The position numbers and the translations under genes are program-made. From assembly GCF_054482595.1 (NCBI RefSeq), contig NZ_CM137008.1: 64,000 nucleotides of DNA; one strand, written 5' to 3'. Below, piece by piece: positions 1 to 22,247 of the stretch (the stretch's first letter is position 1; the number at the start of each line of letters is the position of its first letter). The notes beneath the pieces are model-generated. The model did not search any database, was not told where the DNA came from, and saw only the letters and a program-made list of their open reading frames with translations.

Positions 1-743
1 TGGATAAAGACGAAGAGTTCCAGAAATTCATCTCCGTACCGGAAAACCGTGAGTATGTTTACGGTGATACCGCGACGCTGCTCGATAAAAAACTGCCGAA
101 AAGCAACTGGCTGGCAATGTGGATTTTCCTCGGGGCAATCGCTGTAGTCGCCCTTCTTGGTGCTGATTCGGACCTGCGTCCATCCTTCGGCGGCAAACCG
201 CTGTCGATGGTACTGGTTATTCAGATGTTTATGCTGCTGACCGGGGCGCTGATTATTATCCTGACCAAAACCAATCCCGCGTCTATCTCAAAAAACGAAG
301 TCTTCCGTTCCGGTATGATCGCCATCGTGGCGGTGTACGGTATCGCATGGATGGCAGAAACCATGTTCGGTGCGCATATGTCTGAAATTCAGGGCGTACT
401 GGGTGAAATGGTGAAAGAGTATCCGTGGGCGTATGCCATTGTTCTGCTGCTGGTTTCCAAGTTTGTAAACTCTCAGGCTGCGGCGCTGGCGGCGATTGTT
501 CCGGTCGCGCTGGCGATCGGCGTTGATCCGGCATACATCGTGGCTTCAGCACCGGCTTGCTACGGTTATTACATCCTGCCGACTTATCCGAGCGATCTGG
601 CAGCGATTCAGTTTGACCGTTCCGGCACCACCCACATCGGTCGCTTCGTCATCAACCACAGCTTTATTCTGCCGGGGTTGATTGGTGTGAGCGTATCGTG
701 CGTCTTCGGCTGGATCTTCGCCGCGATGTACGGGTTCTTATAA
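1..743 (+). CDS. dcuB: anaerobic C4-dicarboxylate transporter DcuB, 3' portion (5' end outside window)
   Basis: Frame 3 is open from the window edge ([27 protein letters not shown]...) to the stop at 741-743; hydrophobic membrane protein; sits directly upstream of fumB as in the dcuB-fumB operon. Confidence 0.85.
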
Positions 744-820
744 ATGCACTTTGCGTGCCGCCCGTGACTACGCGGCACGCCATTTTCGAATAACAAATAC
801 AGAGTTACAGGCTGGAAGCT

Positions 821-2467
821 ATGTCAAACAAACCCTTTATCTACCAGGCACCTTTCCCGATGGGGAAAGACAATACCGAATACTATCTACTCACTTCCGA
901 TTACGTTAGCGTTGCCGACTTCGACGGCGAAACCATCCTGAAAGTGGAACCAGAAGCCCTGACCCTGCTGGCGCAGCAAGCCTTTCACGACGCTTCTTTT
1001 ATGCTCCGCCCGGCACACCAGAAACAGGTTGCGGCTATTCTTCACGATCCAGAAGCCAGCGAAAACGACAAGTACGTGGCGCTGCAATTCTTAAGAAACT
1101 CCGAAATCGCCGCCAAAGGCGTGCTGCCGACCTGCCAGGATACCGGCACCGCGATCATCGTCGGTAAAAAAGGCCAGCGCGTGTGGACCGGTGGCGGTGA
1201 TGAAGAAGCGCTGTCGAAAGGCGTCTATAACACCTATATCGAAGATAACCTGCGCTACTCGCAAAACGCGGCGCTGGACATGTACAAAGAGGTCAACACC
1301 GGCACTAACCTGCCTGCGCAAATCGACCTGTACGCGGTAGATGGCGATGAGTACAAATTCCTTTGCGTTGCGAAAGGCGGCGGCTCTGCCAACAAAACGT
1401 ATCTCTACCAGGAAACCAAAGCCCTGCTGACTCCCGGCAAACTGAAAAACTTCCTCGTCGAGAAAATGCGTACCCTCGGTACTGCAGCCTGCCCGCCGTA
1501 CCATATCGCGTTTGTGATTGGCGGTACGTCTGCGGAAACCAACCTGAAAACCGTCAAGTTAGCAAGCGCTCACTATTACGATGAACTGCCGACGGAAGGG
1601 AACGAACATGGTCAGGCGTTCCGCGATGTCCAGCTGGAACAGGAACTGCTGGAAGAGGCCCAGAAACTCGGTCTTGGCGCGCAGTTTGGCGGTAAATACT
1701 TCGCGCACGACATTCGCGTTATCCGTCTGCCACGTCACGGCGCATCCTGCCCGGTCGGCATGGGCGTCTCCTGCTCCGCTGACCGTAACATTAAAGCGAA
1801 AATCAACCGCGAAGGTATCTGGATCGAAAAACTGGAACACAACCCAGGCCAGTACATTCCACAAGAACTGCGCCAGGCCGGTGAAGGCGAAGCGGTGAAA
1901 GTTGACCTTAACCGCCCGATGAAAGAGATCCTCGCCCAGCTTTCGCAATATCCGGTTTCCACTCGTTTGTCGCTCACCGGCACCATTATCGTGGGCCGAG
2001 ATATTGCACACGCCAAGCTGAAAGAGCTGATTGACGCCGGTAAAGAACTTCCGCAGTACATCAAAGATCACCCGATCTACTACGCGGGTCCGGCGAAAAC
2101 CCCTGCCGGTTATCCATCAGGTTCACTTGGCCCAACCACCGCAGGTCGTATGGACTCCTATGTGGATCTGCTGCAATCCCACGGCGGCAGCATGATCATG
2201 CTAGCGAAAGGTAACCGCAGTCAGCAGGTTACCGACGCGTGTCATAAACACGGCGGCTTCTACCTCGGTAGCATCGGCGGTCCGGCGGCGGTACTGGCGC
2301 AGCAGAGCATCAAGCATCTGGAATGCGTCGCTTATCCGGAGCTGGGTATGGAAGCTATCTGGAAAATCGAAGTAGAAGATTTCCCGGCGTTTATCCTGGT
2401 CGATGACAAAGGTAACGACTTCTTCCAGCAGATCGTCAACAAACAGTGCGCGAACTGCACTAAGTAA
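821..2467 (+). CDS. fumB: class I (Fe-S) fumarate hydratase, anaerobic isozyme
   Basis: 548 aa ORF; matches remembered FumB sequence and length; position next to dcuB. Confidence 0.93.
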
Positions 2468-2589
2468 CCTCTTCGGCCCAGCGCCTGGCAGCATGCTGCC
2501 AGGTGATCCCCCTGGGCCACCTCTTTTGCGATTGTAATTTCACGCTTGCTGGTGAATAGTCAGTATTTTCCCTGACTTGCGAACTCACC

Positions 2590-3219
2590 ATGACCCGCAC
2601 ACTCAAGCCGTTAATTCTTAACACCGGCGCACTGGCGCTAACGTTAATCCTGATTTATACCGGCATTTCGGCCCATGACAAACTCACCTGGCTGATGGAA
2701 GTGACACCGGTGATTATTGTCGTGCCGCTACTGCTTGCCACCGCTAAACGTTATCCGTTAACGCCGCTGCTCTATACGCTCATTTTCTTTCACGCCATCA
2801 TCCTGATGGTCGGCGGGCAATACACCTACGCGAAAGTCCCCATCGGTTTTGAGGTGCAGGAATGGCTGGGGTTGAGCCGTAATCCGTATGACAAGCTGGG
2901 GCATTTTTTCCAGGGGCTGGTGCCTGCACTGGTGGCACGAGAAATTCTCGTGCGCGGGATGTACGTGCGCGGACGTAAAATGGTGGCGTTCCTGGTCTGC
3001 TGCGTGGCGCTGGCGATAAGCGCGATGTATGAATTAATCGAGTGGTGGGCGGCGCTGGCAATGGGCCAGGGAGCGGATGATTTTCTCGGCACCCAGGGCG
3101 ACCAGTGGGACACGCAATCCGATATGTTCTGCGCGCTGCTTGGCGCATTAACGACGGTGATATTCCTCGCTCGCTTTCATTGCCGCCAGCTACGGCGCTT
3201 TGGCTTGATAACCGGATAA
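2590..3219 (+). CDS. yjdF: inner membrane protein YjdF
   Basis: 209 aa multi-pass hydrophobic ORF between fumB and melB, as in K-12. Confidence 0.8.
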   Translation: MTRTLKPLILNTGALALTLILIYTGISAHDKLTWLMEVTPVIIVVPLLLATAKRYPLTPLLYTLIFFHAIILMVGGQYTYAKVPIGFEVQEWLGLSRNPYDKLGHFFQGLVPALVAREILVRGMYVRGRKMVAFLVCCVALAISAMYELIEWWAALAMGQGADDFLGTQGDQWDTQSDMFCALLGALTTVIFLARFHCRQLRRFGLITG

Positions 3220-3233
3220 CAACGTGCGCTTTG

Positions 3234-3272
3234 TTGATGCCGGATGCGGCGTGAATTCCTTATCCGGTCTAC
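3234..3272. repeat. REP (repetitive extragenic palindromic) element
   Basis: gccggatgcggcgtgaa...ccttatccggtctaca motif between convergent yjdF and melB. Confidence 0.7.
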
Positions 3273-3357
3273 AAAATTTGCAAATCCAAAGCATTACATT
3301 AAGACGTGGCCTGATAAACATATCGCATCAGGCCATTTTCGTTAGCTATTGTCCACG

Positions 3358-4779
3358 TCAGGCTTTCACATCACTCACTGCACCGACCGGAATATCAGCA
3401 TGAACAGGCTCGGGCGGTACTTTGCGATATTTATCCAGCAGATGAATCTGGATCCTGCGCAGCGTGTCGCCATTGAGGCGATAGAAACGGAAGTAGAGAA
3501 TCAGCGTTACCATGAAAAACAGAGTTGGTAGAGCAATCATAATAAACTGCATACCTAATAGGGCTTGCGTAGACTGTTCAACATTCGGTACATAGCCAAT
3601 CATCCCTAACACAACCGCAATGAAAAAAGCCGCAAAGGCTGAACCGCCCTTCACCACCATAGTCTGCACGGAGTAAGCGATACTTTCACAGCGTACGTGC
3701 AGTTTATATTCACCGTAATCAACGGTATCTGCCACCATGATGACCTGTAATACCCAGAAAAGCGCCGTTCCCACATTCAGCAAAATACCCGCAATCACAA
3801 TGAGGACGACGTTGTGATAGCTCATTAATGCCATTAACAGGAGAACACCACAGCTTAACACCGGAAGAATAGATGCTCCGGCCCATAAAATGCGTCGGGA
3901 TAATGATTTAACTAAGCGTGGGAAGAATACTAACGTCACCAGGTTAGCAGCTCCCGCATACGACAGATAATAGGGGAACAAATCCGCATCACCAATAACA
4001 TATGAGAAATAATAGATAGCAAATCCGGTAATAATGTTGCTGGCTACATTATAAGCAAGAGCCATACCCAAGAGGCATGAAAGCTGATCGTTTTTATAAA
4101 TTAGCGCAACGATGGCTTTAAGTGTCAGATGGCTTCCTTCAGCAGACGGTTGATTGTCTGACGAAAAGACTTCATGCACATTGCGCAAAGTGATGATGGT
4201 TGAAACAATAAAAAAGGCGATTAGTACCAGAGTGAACATCTGAAAGCCAAATCCCCGATCGCCACCGCCGACATAATTAACAAATGGTAGCGTCACACCT
4301 GCCGTAACAAAGCCTGCCAGACTGGCAAAAAAACGCGGATAAGGAACCAGTTGTTCGCGCTCACGTTTATCGAGCGTGATGGTTGGAACCAGCGACCAGA
4401 AGGGAATATCCATAATGGTGTAAGTCATGCCCCAGAGGATGTAGGTCACGCAAACAAAGACAATCTGAGTAGTACCTTCAAACAGATGCGCACTAAAGAG
4501 GAGAAATAAGATTACAGAGTTTGCCAACGTACCGATCAGGATCCAGGGTTTGAACTTACCCCATCGCGATCGCGTAGCATTTACAATCCATCCCATAATC
4601 GGATCGTTAATAGCATCCCAGATCCTCGCCACCAGAAACAAAGTACCGACCAAACCCACAGACAGCCCAACGACATCGGTGTAGTAATACATGAGGTACA
4701 TATACACAATGCCGATCGCAAAATCCTTCCCGAACGCTCCAAATCCATAACTGAGTTTTGTAGTCATTGAAATGCTCAT
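3358..4779 (-). CDS. melB: melibiose:Na+/H+ symporter
   Basis: Translation from the ATG at 4779 begins [20 protein letters not shown] and gives 473 aa; the track ORF starts 8 codons further upstream. Confidence 0.93.
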
Positions 4780-17912: not shown

Positions 17913-18791
17913 TTACACCAAATTTACAGAGAAGATTTCCTCGAGCATTGCCCCCGCCAGACGCTGCGCTGAACAGAGTCGTGGCATCCCCAGCGCGACA
18001 GTTTGCCAGCGTTGGGTCACTGACCAGCAAACGGGTTGTTTATCTGCCGTGGTCCACTTTCCCAGCCAACTTAAAAAATCAGCATGATCCCCGCCCGTCG
18101 GAACGGTCGAAGAGGCAAACCACTGATGGTAATAGTGACGCGTGGTCGGGGCCGCATTGATACTCTCTGCCAGATGTTGTGTCGCTTTCACGCGCAAATC
18201 ACCCAGCAACAACGCCACCGCTTGCGGGCTTCCCAGACGACAGGCATCGCCAAATGCCCCCCAACGCAACTCTTCGAGAACGATAAAACAGCGCCCAGGC
18301 AACGACCAGGCGTTATACGCCCCAGCACGCCAGCGGGTAAAAATTTGCTCGCTCTGTTCACCCGCCTGCACCAGTAGGCCTCGTTGCGTTAACGCCTTTT
18401 CCTTCCAGCGACAACGGGCTGAAAACCACTCATACAAGGCGGCAATTTGCTGGGGGAGCTCCGGGAAAGCAGAGTGCTGGCGGTGATCCATTTTTTGCAG
18501 CAGCGCCAGATGCTGCGCGATCTGCGTCAGTGCCAGATGACCGGGATCCAGCATCGACGCCAGTTTTTCCACCAATGTCAAACGCAGGCTAAGCGGCGCA
18601 TTTAACATTCCGCCGTTCGTCCATGTCTGAAGCTGCACGCGCGCAAGAAGTTCCTGCATCAGTCGTTCACGAAACTGCTGCTGATGGGCTTGTGGAAGGC
18701 GGGCATCATCGCCCTGCGCCAGATCCACTAAAAAGCGGGGATAAACCGACTCCAGCACGCGACCGGGGCCGTCAAGTAACGTCTTGGTCAA
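17913..18791 (-). CDS. yjcZ: uncharacterised protein YjcZ
   Basis: 292 aa; position downstream of crfC as in K-12; 4-bp overlap with crfC stop. Confidence 0.8.
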   Translation of the reverse strand: MTKTLLDGPGRVLESVYPRFLVDLAQGDDARLPQAHQQQFRERLMQELLARVQLQTWTNGGMLNAPLSLRLTLVEKLASMLDPGHLALTQIAQHLALLQKMDHRQHSAFPELPQQIAALYEWFSARCRWKEKALTQRGLLVQAGEQSEQIFTRWRAGAYNAWSLPGRCFIVLEELRWGAFGDACRLGSPQAVALLLGDLRVKATQHLAESINAAPTTRHYYHQWFASSTVPTGGDHADFLSWLGKWTTADKQPVCWSVTQRWQTVALGMPRLCSAQRLAGAMLEEIFSVNLV

Positions 18792-21016
18792 TATCGTTCT
18801 GCCGTGAAAAGTGTTTGAATATCATCGCGTAACAGCTGGGCGTCGGTGTAAATCCAGCCGTGAGTCATCACAGTCTGCTGCAATTGCTGCTGCATCAGCC
18901 TGACCACCGATTCATTTTGTTGACGCAGAGCCAGACTTTCGCGTAAACGCGTCTGTAATTCCGTCAAACATGAAGCGAACTCAGCGAAAAAAGTATTCAT
19001 GCCTGCCGTAACAGATTCATCGACCTGCTCTGCCAGAACTTTAGCCATTTGTTGGCAATAGAGATCGACTTCTGCACTTAATGCTCGTTGCAACACACTG
19101 TAATCAACCGTTTCTGTCGGGGATTTCTCATTCCCCCGTCCCCAGTCGGGCTGATTCAACCAGCGCGAAAAAGTCTCACGCACAACGCCTAAACGCGTGC
19201 TCTGCTCGTCCGTTGCTTCCTGGCGCGAAATGACTTCACTGAACAGCTGGCGAGTGTTGAAGTGGGGAACTACGCCGTGAAAAACAGGAAAATGAAACCC
19301 AGGACGAAACCCTGACTCGCTCAATTCCATTTTGACTTGTTGTTCAATGGGGCGAATAACATCGGTTAACACCCGGCAAAGAGTGGATTCAAGCTCGGCA
19401 AAACGCAGCGTAAAGTCGCGACTGATGGTGTTCTGCGCCGTCTGTAACAGTGTCTCACAGCGGGTACGAATCTCGCTTAACGGCTCCGAATCATCCTGAA
19501 ACAAGGCGGCTAACTGCGCCTTCAGCGCATCTTGCTGTTGACGCAGAAAGTGGTTGGCGGAGGTCAGGGCCAGCTCGATTTCATGTTTAATCTCGCCGCT
19601 CACCTGCGCCTGATTGAGTTGCAATAGCTGCAAACTTTCTTCGATCTGGTGGATATTTTGCCGCAATTGTTCACAAGCGACGTTTAACCCGTGCGCACGA
19701 AAATCCAGGTATTCCCGCGCCTGCTGCGCGTAATTCAACAGTTTATGCGCGGCAGATCGCAGAGCATACAACGAGGCGTTAGCGTAAGCGGCATGAAGCA
19801 ACATCTGAATTGGCTGGGCGAACAGCGAATCTTCCCACAGCTGATCGGCAGCATGACGAATATGTTCGAGGTCCGCCAGATCGGCATGACGCCAGCGCCT
19901 GCCGAGCGCGGCATGGGCAAAATCTTCTACCCAGCGTTGTTGCTCTGGCGCTGGTAACTTACCGTTGTTGGCTAACTCATGGCGCGCCCGATTCGCCAGG
20001 TAGCCCCACATCGACGACACCGGAAATATCTGCTGTGGCGTAATACAGCCTTTCATCAGCGTCCCGGAAATCAGTGCCCGCACCTGGTCGGCGTCGTCAC
20101 TGTTACGATCCTGTTGATCGAACTTATTGACCAGCACATACAGCGGCACCGATTGCCCCACCGCCAAAATCGCCTCACGGACCTCTTCATCGGAGATCGA
20201 TTTCAGTTGCGTATAATCCAGCACCGCCAGTACCGCCGAGGCGCGTGCCAGCTGCTGGTTAAGCATTTTTTGCAGATGCGGTTGCCCGGCTTCATTTGGC
20301 CCGGGGGTATCCAGTAACGTCAACTGACCGGGATAACTCTCCAGCCCCGCCAGATGGACAAACTCCACTTCAATCACGGGAATATGCTCAATGGCGGCGT
20401 AAGCAGAAAAAGGAAAATCGACGTCCAGCGCCTTCGCCAGTCGCACCAAATCATTCAAACTTTTCAGACAATGAAAAATAGGCTGGGCACCCAGATAATA
20501 TTTTTCGAAAGCGACGCCATTTTCGATCCGCTGCATAAGCGCACGCATATCTTTATCTATTTCCAGCACATCGGTCAGATGCTTAATATCGCAATCACGC
20601 AGGCGTTGTTGTAATTGTTGAATTAAACAATCGATTGGCGCGACATGTGAAAAATGCAGTACCGGTTCTTTTTGCCCGGGTGTATGGCGAATAAGCGTCG
20701 GCAGGGCAGTCATTGGGCGATTGCGATTAGGCAGAACCTCCGTACCAACAATGGCATTAATGGTGGTTGATTTCCCTGCTTTCATAGTACCGACAATCGC
20801 CAGCACCATTTCCAGTTGGGAAATTTTACGCAACTCATTATTCAGCATCGCGTGACGCTCGGCGATATTAGGCTGACTCCAGGGTAAAGCCAGTTGTGGC
20901 GCATCGTCTCCGGGTACAGAGAGAGGCATTTTTTCCAGTAACTGCAACTGTTGGCGAGAAAGCTGTAACAGGCGTTCAGCCTCCTGACTTAACTCATACA
21001 GGGTCTGTGTGTACAT
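18788..21016 (-). CDS. crfC: dynamin-like GTPase CrfC (YjdA)
   Basis: 742 aa; P-loop GTPase motif GTMKAGKST near N-terminus; long coiled-coil C-terminal part. Confidence 0.85.
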   Translation of the reverse strand: MYTQTLYELSQEAERLLQLSRQQLQLLEKMPLSVPGDDAPQLALPWSQPNIAERHAMLNNELRKISQLEMVLAIVGTMKAGKSTTINAIVGTEVLPNRNRPMTALPTLIRHTPGQKEPVLHFSHVAPIDCLIQQLQQRLRDCDIKHLTDVLEIDKDMRALMQRIENGVAFEKYYLGAQPIFHCLKSLNDLVRLAKALDVDFPFSAYAAIEHIPVIEVEFVHLAGLESYPGQLTLLDTPGPNEAGQPHLQKMLNQQLARASAVLAVLDYTQLKSISDEEVREAILAVGQSVPLYVLVNKFDQQDRNSDDADQVRALISGTLMKGCITPQQIFPVSSMWGYLANRARHELANNGKLPAPEQQRWVEDFAHAALGRRWRHADLADLEHIRHAADQLWEDSLFAQPIQMLLHAAYANASLYALRSAAHKLLNYAQQAREYLDFRAHGLNVACEQLRQNIHQIEESLQLLQLNQAQVSGEIKHEIELALTSANHFLRQQQDALKAQLAALFQDDSEPLSEIRTRCETLLQTAQNTISRDFTLRFAELESTLCRVLTDVIRPIEQQVKMELSESGFRPGFHFPVFHGVVPHFNTRQLFSEVISRQEATDEQSTRLGVVRETFSRWLNQPDWGRGNEKSPTETVDYSVLQRALSAEVDLYCQQMAKVLAEQVDESVTAGMNTFFAEFASCLTELQTRLRESLALRQQNESVVRLMQQQLQQTVMTHGWIYTDAQLLRDDIQTLFTAERY

Positions 21017-21417
21017 AGAAAATTCTTCCTTAAAGCAAATTTTATTACTTTTATTTAGCCAGATTGTTTTTGAGTTCTGTTTTCGGCTTTTATAATTACT
21101 GCAAGAAATAATTTTATATTTAGAGCGTTGTTTTTTATTAGAATAAATAACATCTTCCGATACGTTTAAAACGTCAGAAAGATAAAAATATCATGTGAAT
21201 TAAAAAAAGAACAAGTAGAGCATTAACCTTATCTTAAATAATAAATGGAGGCAAAAAGATTATTTTCTTTTTGCGTTTCCTTTCAAATGAAAACGATCGT
21301 CGTCTAAAATCAGCAGTACCCCCGACAAACTCAGGGATTTTGTGTATAATTGCGGCCTTTTTCGGCAATCTGCCGTTTTTTGGCGCTTTTGCCCTGCTGA
21401 CTTTTGAGGAAATCCAC

Positions 21418-21753
21418 ATGTCATTACCACACTGCCCAAAATGCAACTCCGAATACACTTACGAAGATAACGGCATGTACATCTGCCCGGAATGTGCCTA
21501 CGAATGGAACGACGCAGAACCTGCACAGGAAAGCGACGAGCTGATCGTTAAAGATGCTAACGGCAATCTGCTGGCTGACGGCGACAGCGTTACCATCATT
21601 AAAGATCTGAAGGTGAAAGGTAGCTCTTCGATGCTGAAAATTGGCACCAAAGTGAAAAACATCCGCCTGGTTGAAGGCGACCATAACATCGATTGCAAAA
21701 TCGACGGTTTTGGTCCGATGAAACTGAAATCTGAGTTTGTGAAAAAGAACTGA
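21418..21753 (+). CDS. phnA: zinc-ribbon protein PhnA (YjdM)
   Basis: 111 aa from ATG at 21418 ([30 protein letters not shown]...); CxxC...CxxC zinc ribbon; the track ORF is extended upstream. Confidence 0.88.
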
Positions 21754-21771
21754 TTGTATTGTGATCGGTAA

Positions 21772-22247
<476 letters not shown>

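Follow-up and report, generated by a model that had tools for sequence, protein, structure and literature searches.

The AT-rich gap between crfC and yjdM in Escherichia coli is probably a modular, two-way control region

Introduction

Divergent σ70 regulatory regions with long leaders, such as the one between nrfA and acs in E. coli, are AT-rich, extend over a few hundred bp, and combine back-to-back promoter-like hexamers and conserved ends with a variable middle. The gap between the divergently oriented genes crfC (also rdcA or yjdA) and yjdM (the old “phnA”) shares all of these traits; it differs in that the predicted crfC start lies unusually far from its gene (about 200 nt) and in that both of its promoters are predictions.

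Three other described systems come close to this locus. A FliA promoter located inside yjdA drives yjcZ (PMC4183435), and the crfC–yjdM locus resembles it to the extent that in Buttiauxella a coding sequence upstream of crfC contains a block that is non-coding elsewhere; here, however, the host gene appears to have decayed in most lineages, leaving the embedded blocks behind, and promoter activity is predicted. Regulators of the HTH-WYL-WCX type (YafY/PafBC/BrxR-like) are represented by that Buttiauxella gene, which matches both the WYL and the WCX domains, whereas the E. coli gap has neither such an ORF nor a detectable protein-level remnant of one. Lastly, Ssr28 is a predicted sRNA of Shigella flexneri 301, 328 nt long and placed at NC_004337 4,281,467–4,281,794, on the phnA strand between yjdA and phnA (Wang 2016, PMC4782007). 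Its flanks and strand agree with the gap considered here, most of which it would cover, but it was predicted from a promoter and a terminator and has an RT-PCR signal only; our tests on the E. coli gap lend it no independent support.

The region is of interest for the gene to its left. CrfC/RdcA is a GTPase that activates DgcE, the top-level trigger of biofilm matrix production in E. coli (PMC6510439), and the control of crfC expression itself is unsettled: a FliA promoter once predicted for it has been rejected, and its RNA is nonetheless FliA-dependent. Here, we compare the gap across the Enterobacteriaceae and argue, with fair but incomplete confidence, that it is a compound two-way control region made up of promoters and leaders rather than a gene.

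Results

A core, AT-rich gap with conserved ends

The window analysed here is a 64,000-nt stretch of an E. coli chromosome (contig NZ_CM137008.1, assembly GCF_054482595.1). A 601-nt query spanning the gap shows 100% identity to strain XH990. A preliminary description based on the letters of the window had marked out an AT-rich, non-coding interval of about 400 bp between crfC and phnA, and this was borne out: the gap runs from 21017 to 21417 (401 nt), its G+C content is 31.7% compared to 54.1% for the whole window, and the three AT-rich strings quoted in that description are all found within it. The lowest G+C content (25.5–26.5%) is reached in 200-nt windows across 21000–21299. The gap is bounded by the ATG of crfC at 21016 on the minus strand, which opens an intact ORF of 742 codons (18788–21016), and by the ATG of yjdM at 21418 on the plus strand. 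The same description had called the gap unusually long, which is true insofar as it ranks second in length and lowest in G+C within the window, but the gaps nrfA/acs (392 nt, 38.5% G+C), adiA/adiY (324 nt, 34.9%), and RR/yjcS (290 nt, 33.1%) are of a similar kind. On the other side of yjdM, the 557-nt yjdM-yjdN gap consists mostly of five tandem copies of REP325/naRNA4 (21771–22247, plus strand; Rfam RF02564, 102–111 bits), a known element that acts as a partial terminator and stabiliser of yjdM mRNA according to a 2026 preprint.

The crfC/yjdM gap is core E. coli DNA. The 601-nt query was found in 5413 of 5426 complete E. coli genomes, with at least 80% coverage in 5404 of them, and RefSeq annotates no feature inside the gap in E. 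coli, MG1655 included (NC_000913.3, 4326735–4327134). As separate observations on individual strains, AVS0747 (NZ_CP124467.1, hit H15) matches the query at its yjdM end only (19% coverage), such that this strain apparently lacks the gap together with the beginning of crfC, and crfC is annotated as frameshifted in XH990 (L002) and 08-3918 (L089), which makes it evidently dispensable in some lineages.

For comparison, 80 loci from other Enterobacteriaceae were fetched using the CrfC N-terminus as a query. yjdM is the divergent upstream neighbour of crfC in 76 of these loci, an arrangement common to about 70 species, and the 74 gaps that could be measured range from 323 to 1397 nt: about 400 nt in Escherichia, 526–583 nt in most Citrobacter, mostly 550–614 nt in Enterobacter, Kosakonia, Lelliottia and their relatives, 323–430 nt in Trabulsiella, Yokenella, Pluralibacter and their relatives, and 796–1397 nt in Cedecea and Buttiauxella. 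Since the species compared are related, counts given below (such as 50 of 57) describe non-independent events. Within crfC itself, the first 300 residues of the protein (codons 1–300) usually align to 307–309 codons outside Escherichia (loci L006–L083), pointing to an indel of ~8 codons near the N-terminal GTPase region that sets Escherichia, Trabulsiella, Yokenella and a few others apart.

Conservation in all genera is confined to ~115 nt adjoining yjdM and ~100 nt adjoining crfC; the intervening ~180 nt of the E. coli gap can be aligned within Escherichia and weakly with C. koseri. On this basis the gap resolves into four modules, namely the yjdM promoter with its leader, a predicted crfC promoter, a crfC leader hairpin, and a crfC-proximal block, with the hairpin flanked by AT-rich filler to which most E. 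coli polymorphisms of the gap map (Table 1).

Table 1 Coordinates of features in and around the crfC/yjdM gap (window positions unless gap positions are stated; a dot marks features without an assigned strand)
Feature	Position	Strand	Remarks
crfC Shine-Dalgarno	21031-21025	-	AAGGAAG
A-rich tract	21055-21041	-	AAUAAAAGUAAUAAA; Hfq-motif-like; interrupted in K-12
crfC-proximal leader	21079-21017	-	highly conserved in all genera, including those with the extra gene
Proximal stem	21088-21084 / 21061-21057	-	AGCCG / UGGCU; crfC leader
Conserved box	21080-21102	.	GCAGTAATTATAAAAGCCGAAAA (crfC sense), also given as GTAATTATAAAAGCCGAAA; perfect TATAAT on plus strand, 21091-21096
crfC-proximal block, ~100 nt	21122-21018		highly conserved; box, stem, A-rich tract, ribosome-binding site
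AT-rich, fast-evolving filler	21123-21225	.	flanks hairpin; unalignable beyond Escherichia and C. koseri
Inverted repeat I1	21129-21152		inside the filler
ATG ORF, 32 aa	21153-21055	-	no Shine-Dalgarno; start ATG to ACG in K-12
Conserved crfC leader hairpin	21184-21151	-	UAUCUUUCUGACGUUU...AAACGUAUCGGAAGAUG; per-species folding
M1, predicted distal crfC/rdcA promoter	21254-21226	-	TTGCCT (21254-21249), 17-nt spacer, TAAGGT (21231-21226)
ATG ORF, 20 aa	21245-21307	+	no Shine-Dalgarno; start ATG to ATA in K-12
AT-rich perfect inverted repeat	21251-21274	.	GCAAAAAGA/TCTTTTTGC; Escherichia only
Second promoter-like site, minus strand	21286-21259	-	TTGAAA-16-AATAAT; overlaps the GCAAAAAGA/TCTTTTTGC repeat
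Second promoter-like site, plus strand	21282-21310	+	TTCAAA-17-TAAAAT; scan score 8.7; Escherichia-specific
Predicted yjdM core σ70 promoter	21322-21350	+	CCGACA-17-TATAAT; consensus scan; predicted start near 21357
yjdM 5′ leader, about 61 nt	21357-21417	+	from predicted start to yjdM ATG
yjdM leader hairpin 1	21363-21375	+	CGGCA-AUC-UGCCG; U6 run directly after, 21376-21381
yjdM leader hairpin 2	21382-21393	+	GGC/GCC
yjdM Shine-Dalgarno	21406-21410	+	GAGGA
HTH-WYL-WCX gene directly upstream of crfC, L081 (Buttiauxella)	gap positions 370-1299		
HTH-WYL-WCX gene directly upstream of crfC, L077-L080 and L082	gap positions about 362-1078		

Predicted σ70 promoters face both genes

The preliminary description had also supposed that the gap holds divergent promoters, and promoter prediction agrees, with predicted σ70 sites top-scoring on both strands in E. 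coli and in most of the 17 species scanned. Both the predicted yjdM promoter and the predicted crfC promoter (termed M1) carry hexamers near TTGACA and TATAAT with a 17-nt spacer, within the 16–18 bp expected, and in both the hexamers and their spacing are conserved around a drifting spacer. The yjdM promoter has the best yjdM-direction score in 12 of the 17 species; its two hexamers are kept in every genus aligned, and the promoter region is identical among seven E. coli and two other Escherichia. The start of yjdM is predicted near 21357 from this promoter. A second plus-strand site further upstream is the same in E. coli and E. whittamii and cannot be aligned in Citrobacter.

On the crfC side, no crfC-direction σ70 site in the E. 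coli gap scores higher than M1 (9.4), which is also among the top three in 11 of 16 other species. Its pattern, TTG[CT][CTG]N-N17-TA[N]GGT, is present in 56 of 75 gaps; the spacer is always 17 nt, while its first nine positions vary freely and lack three-base periodicity. Within E. coli the -10 is polymorphic (TAAGGT/TAATGT), with the key T, A, and final T retained. Hexamers and a 17-nt distance that are kept around a free spacer devoid of codon periodicity constitute the signature of a promoter and not of coding sequence. Transcription from M1 would begin near 21219, giving crfC a leader of about 200 nt.

Two further elements were noted. The AT-rich inverted repeat at 21251–21274 has an imperfect stem in E. 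whittamii and E1V33 and is probably incidental, and a second promoter-like site on the minus strand overlaps this repeat. With respect to published transcription-start data, the RNA polymerase/σ70 SELEX tables list no constitutive promoter in the crfC/yjdM spacer, the available text of Kim 2012 and of the SMRT-Cappable-seq supplement has no start-site entry for the locus, and Mendoza-Vargas 2009 gives a RACE primer for yjdM only and no start-site entry for the gap.

Pairing is retained in the yjdM leader as its sequence changes

Of the 32 species folded, most share the layout of two hairpins in the yjdM leader and build it from differing stem sequences. Stems seen elsewhere include CGACA/UGUCG, CUCGGC/GCCGAG, GCUGG/CCAGC, ACCGG/CCGGU, and others. 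Hairpins were judged by per-species folding; with MAFFT, the crfC hairpin sequences aligned out of register, and RNAalifold returned no consensus structure for the yjdM leader, the alignment being too gappy. In a pair count, 77.5% of the cells of hairpin 1 are paired compared to 24–51% with a slid partner, and 12 cells are changed on both sides, a number equalled in two of 500 shuffles. The E. coli leader fold has a z-score of only -1.5. Its minimum-energy form (21363–21394, plus strand) nests CGGCA with UGCC(C) and UGCCG with UGGCG and thereby excludes both conserved hairpins, which could reflect a structural switch or chance.

Hairpin 1 together with its U-run was flagged as terminator-like by our scan, and a hairpin followed directly by a U-run is the arrangement expected of an attenuator. 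The structure could act as a stabiliser, as a site of pausing or attenuation, or as a site for protein binding. An attenuated product of ~25 nt would probably be missed by Term-seq-type libraries. The curated Term-seq tables of Adams 2021 hold no premature 3′ ends at this U-run.

The predicted crfC leader carries a strand-biased hairpin and a conserved proximal block

Between M1 and crfC, a hairpin occupies a homologous position in most genera even though its inner stems are unrelated. Owing to U-G pairs, the crfC-sense strand folds more stably than the antisense strand (mean difference -3.4 kcal/mol) in 50 of the 57 distinct sequences, and this bias suggests that the region is transcribed toward crfC, consistent with a start at M1. 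In E. coli, the z-score of the hairpin is -3.2; the fold of the whole predicted crfC leader is not unusual (z -0.99). Across Escherichia, the 5′ arm hardly varies (a single 1-nt deletion, in E1V33), and the 3′-arm changes that we checked (GG to AG in K-12, two in Z135-1) preserve pairing.

Downstream of the hairpin, the crfC-proximal block contains a stem whose partners co-vary by eye (AAGCC/GGCUU, AACCG/CGGUU, and UCCGG/CCGGA) and a box in which columns T5, T8, A10, A14, C17, and C18 are invariant among 31 distinct versions. The substitutions within the box fit a -10 in the yjdM sense better (T in 29 of 31, A in 26, T in all 31, a variable position, A in all 31, and T in 30), which implies that the crfC start may lie closer in than M1, or that the box may belong to an upstream yjdM-direction promoter or give rise to an antisense transcript. 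In the latter case, the plus-strand -10 would drive an RNA across the crfC leader that converges on M1, and transcriptional interference or the formation of an RNA duplex would then govern crfC. Besides the substitution pattern, this reading draws on the rank of the box among the top four yjdM-direction scores in 13 of 17 species, carriers of a WYL-family gene described below among them, and on the overlap of the proposed RNA with the conserved hairpin. We nevertheless regard it as unlikely: there is no conserved -35 for the box on either strand, the invariant bases exceed the -10 hexamer (CACGT..., ...GCC) such that a protein site or an RNA element would fit equally well, and the strand bias of the hairpin favours crfC-sense RNA.

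Contact between the crfC leader and Hfq-bound sRNAs was considered as well. A “crfC.5UTR” feature is enriched in the MS2-GlnZ pull-down (log2 5.99, adjusted p 0.0037, at low counts), and crfC is listed among the RIL-seq partners of GlnZ; the enrichment speaks for a crfC 5′UTR that exists as RNA, and these data fit a crfC leader that meets Hfq-bound sRNAs. Separately, the A-rich tract of the proximal block, an (ARN)5-type sequence, was downgraded as a firm Hfq site and is not relied upon here because it is interrupted in K-12.

No support for a hidden small RNA or small protein

According to the preliminary description, the gap is long enough to encode a small RNA or a very small protein, a suggestion that found no backing: there is no Rfam match, no Term-seq 3′ end, no small ORF that is conserved or preceded by a Shine-Dalgarno sequence, and the middle of the gap is also not conserved outside Escherichia. 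In detail, Rfam hits in the E. coli gap remain at chance level (at most 17 bits, compared to family thresholds of 50–94), and the gaps of nine other species' loci returned no match. The Adams 2021 tables, which cover three growth conditions, contain neither a 3′ end in the gap nor any yjdM or rdcA entry; they do contain a 3′ end downstream of rdcB (4330351). Just two sites in the gap look like terminators, one a stem of 5 bp within the yjdM leader and the other AT-rich and confined to Escherichia, and a promoter of its own combined with a strong intrinsic terminator and a discrete 3′ end, as expected of a small RNA, was not found.

An independent yjdM-sense sRNA resembling Ssr28 would have to start from the plus-strand TATAAT of the conserved box and end at 21363–21381, making it about 280 nt long. 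The Shigella prediction on the phnA strand, with its positive RT-PCR, speaks for such an RNA, as do the conserved, perfect -10 in the yjdM sense and the downstream terminator-like hairpin with its U6. However, RT-PCR was the only detection, with neither northern blot nor mapped ends reported (PMC4782007), and a long leader or read-through gives the same signal, so that Ssr28 amounts to weak evidence for a discrete RNA. Moreover, the putative terminator is the short stem within the yjdM leader, none of the three growth conditions yields a Term-seq 3′ end in the gap, ~180 nt of the proposed RNA are unconserved beyond Escherichia, Rfam offers no match, and the MG1655 annotation is empty here. Taken together, we judge an sRNA of this kind very unlikely.

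The absence of a convincing ORF, also stated in the preliminary description, was upheld. The only ATG ORFs in the window strain encode 20 and 32 aa, and it is on these that a protein gene below the annotation cutoff would depend. Both lack a Shine-Dalgarno sequence, both lose their start codon in K-12, and neither is conserved in E. whittamii. The MG1655 annotation, which covers validated small proteins, has no gene in the gap. Two candidates from other genera were examined by eye and discarded: an ORF ending in “...NCYA..FRIR” in Enterobacter is broken in Lelliottia and Kosakonia and lacks three-base periodicity, and a short upstream ORF following “AAAATG” varies in start codon, length, and frame and has shrunk to six codons in E. 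coli. A very small protein gene is thus extremely improbable.

Probable relics of a WYL-family regulator gene in the longer gaps

In Buttiauxella, the space between yjdM and crfC holds an intact gene of 309 aa that reads in the same direction as crfC. It matches the Pfam families WYL (6.8e-7) and WCX (5e-5) and the PADLOC WYL model (6e-18), and it has full-length relatives at 30–40% identity in other Proteobacteria. Cedecea carries a 238-aa version without a WYL domain at the same place, and C. colo carries fragments, all of them likewise oriented as crfC is. The position that a remnant would occupy in E. coli is held by an intact gene in relatives.

The longer gaps of Enterobacter, Kosakonia, and related genera contain two short blocks that match this locus in the right order and orientation. 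The first is an inverted repeat, TGACAC..CCTGTCA, located just upstream of the ATG of the WYL gene (nhmmer E 6e-4); the second, “AAAATGCGCTACGCTGT”, matches the WYL domain at the codons KNALRC (nhmmer E 0.0036). When the gap middle was compared with the WYL gene at the DNA level, these same codons (about 155–165) gave the best match in 14 of 19 species, over 16–24 nt, with shuffle p-values of 0.005–0.01 in nine species and 0.02–0.06 in three more. The conserved leader hairpin comes after the KNALRC block, and the intact WYL coding sequence contains a hairpin resembling it. Together, the intact Buttiauxella gene and the short relics in other genera indicate that part of the gap probably derives from a decayed gene.

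Protein-level comparisons gave less. The WYL protein-family profile performed no better on six-frame translations of all gaps than on reversed decoys, and tblastn of the WYL protein against the gaps rose only marginally above decoys. For the middle of the E. coli gap, similarity to the WYL gene is not significant (p 0.36), nor does M1 have significant homology to that gene. E. coli is linked to the WYL gene by positional alignment through Citrobacter only. The WYL matches elsewhere are short. The simplest reading of these patterns would be that an ancestral regulator gene decayed and that pieces useful for crfC expression were kept, in which case the E. coli filler itself may be gene debris. 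As an aside, CrfC gives weak matches (about 1e-6) to the PADLOC LeoBC and LeoA dynamin-like models, and a WYL regulator beside a pair of dynamin-like GTPases resembles a defence-island layout.

The FliA site lies within crfC and not upstream of it

Fitzgerald 2014 (PMC4183435) reported a FliA peak inside yjdA, found the FliA promoter formerly predicted upstream of yjdA to be incorrect, and described the promoter internal to crfC as driving yjcZ/rdcB. The window agrees with this account. The exact FliA motif, TAAAGTTCTGGCAGAGCAGGTCGATGAA, occurs inside crfC (19016–19043, minus strand), ~240 nt before the stop codon. In the gap, the best match to the σ28 motif TAAAGTTT-N11-GCCGATAA reaches 10 of 16 positions, and a FliA -10-like sequence (GCCGAAAA, 21087–21080) has no -35. 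We rejected a FliA promoter upstream of crfC. The same study nonetheless lists an about tenfold drop of yjdA RNA on mutation of fliA, from a value of 111 to one of 11 (Fitzgerald 2014 Table 2, PMC4183435); with no upstream FliA site, this leaves part of crfC control unexplained by the present model. Reads from the internal promoter or an indirect effect could account for the drop. yjdA is not named in the available text of Zhao 2007.

The weak basal level also bears on the role of base composition. Over about 300 bp, the core of the gap has a G+C content of 25–27% and many A/T runs, and it might serve mainly as a platform for nucleoid proteins (H-NS, Fis) or as curved DNA that silences or insulates both promoters. 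AT-rich composition with A/T runs matches the preferences of H-NS. The residual yjdA expression of 11 in the fliA mutant (PMC4183435) is compatible with silencing of this sort. Such a platform leaves unexplained both the hexamers at fixed spacing and the hairpin with conserved pairing, and we consider it unlikely as the main explanation, though it can coexist with the promoters and leaders favoured here.

Discussion

Our preferred reading, that promoters and leaders serving both genes make up the gap, can be stated as a sequence of proposed steps. On the yjdM side, ~95 nt would comprise a near-consensus σ70 promoter and a short leader of two hairpins, in which selection appears to keep pairing as the sequence changes. 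On the crfC side, transcription would most likely begin at M1, ~200 nt upstream of the gene, and the transcript would run through an AT-rich leader with one conserved hairpin into the ~100-nt conserved block that ends at the ribosome-binding site. This layout suggests control after initiation, for example by RNA structure or by access of sRNAs and Hfq to the ribosome-binding site. The AT-rich filler between the modules evolves fast and probably stems in part from the decayed WYL-family regulator gene. The firing of M1, the actual start positions, and the roles of the hairpins are what we infer from comparative patterns.

In kind, the crfC/yjdM gap is a real but ordinary feature that would not surprise a specialist and does not suggest a new type of element. 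Neither the map of modules, nor the distal crfC promoter predicted here, nor the origin by gene decay has an earlier description in the literature searched; all three are modest refinements. They do supply concrete and cheap targets for reporter fusions in the form of the conserved distal promoter, the long leader, and the hairpin.

A more far-reaching version of these ideas would treat the crfC leader as a lineage-wide cis-regulatory RNA salvaged from the dead WYL gene, in which M1 and the hairpin are opposed by the antisense -10. We put this forward as a long shot. If true, the level of a dynamin-like GTPase that activates the c-di-GMP pathway of DgcE would be set by convergent transcription or by leader structure and not, contrary to an earlier assumption, by the flagellar sigma factor. 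As for the origin of the gap, gene decay would make it a small but neat illustration of the way in which long, “empty” stretches between genes can come about.
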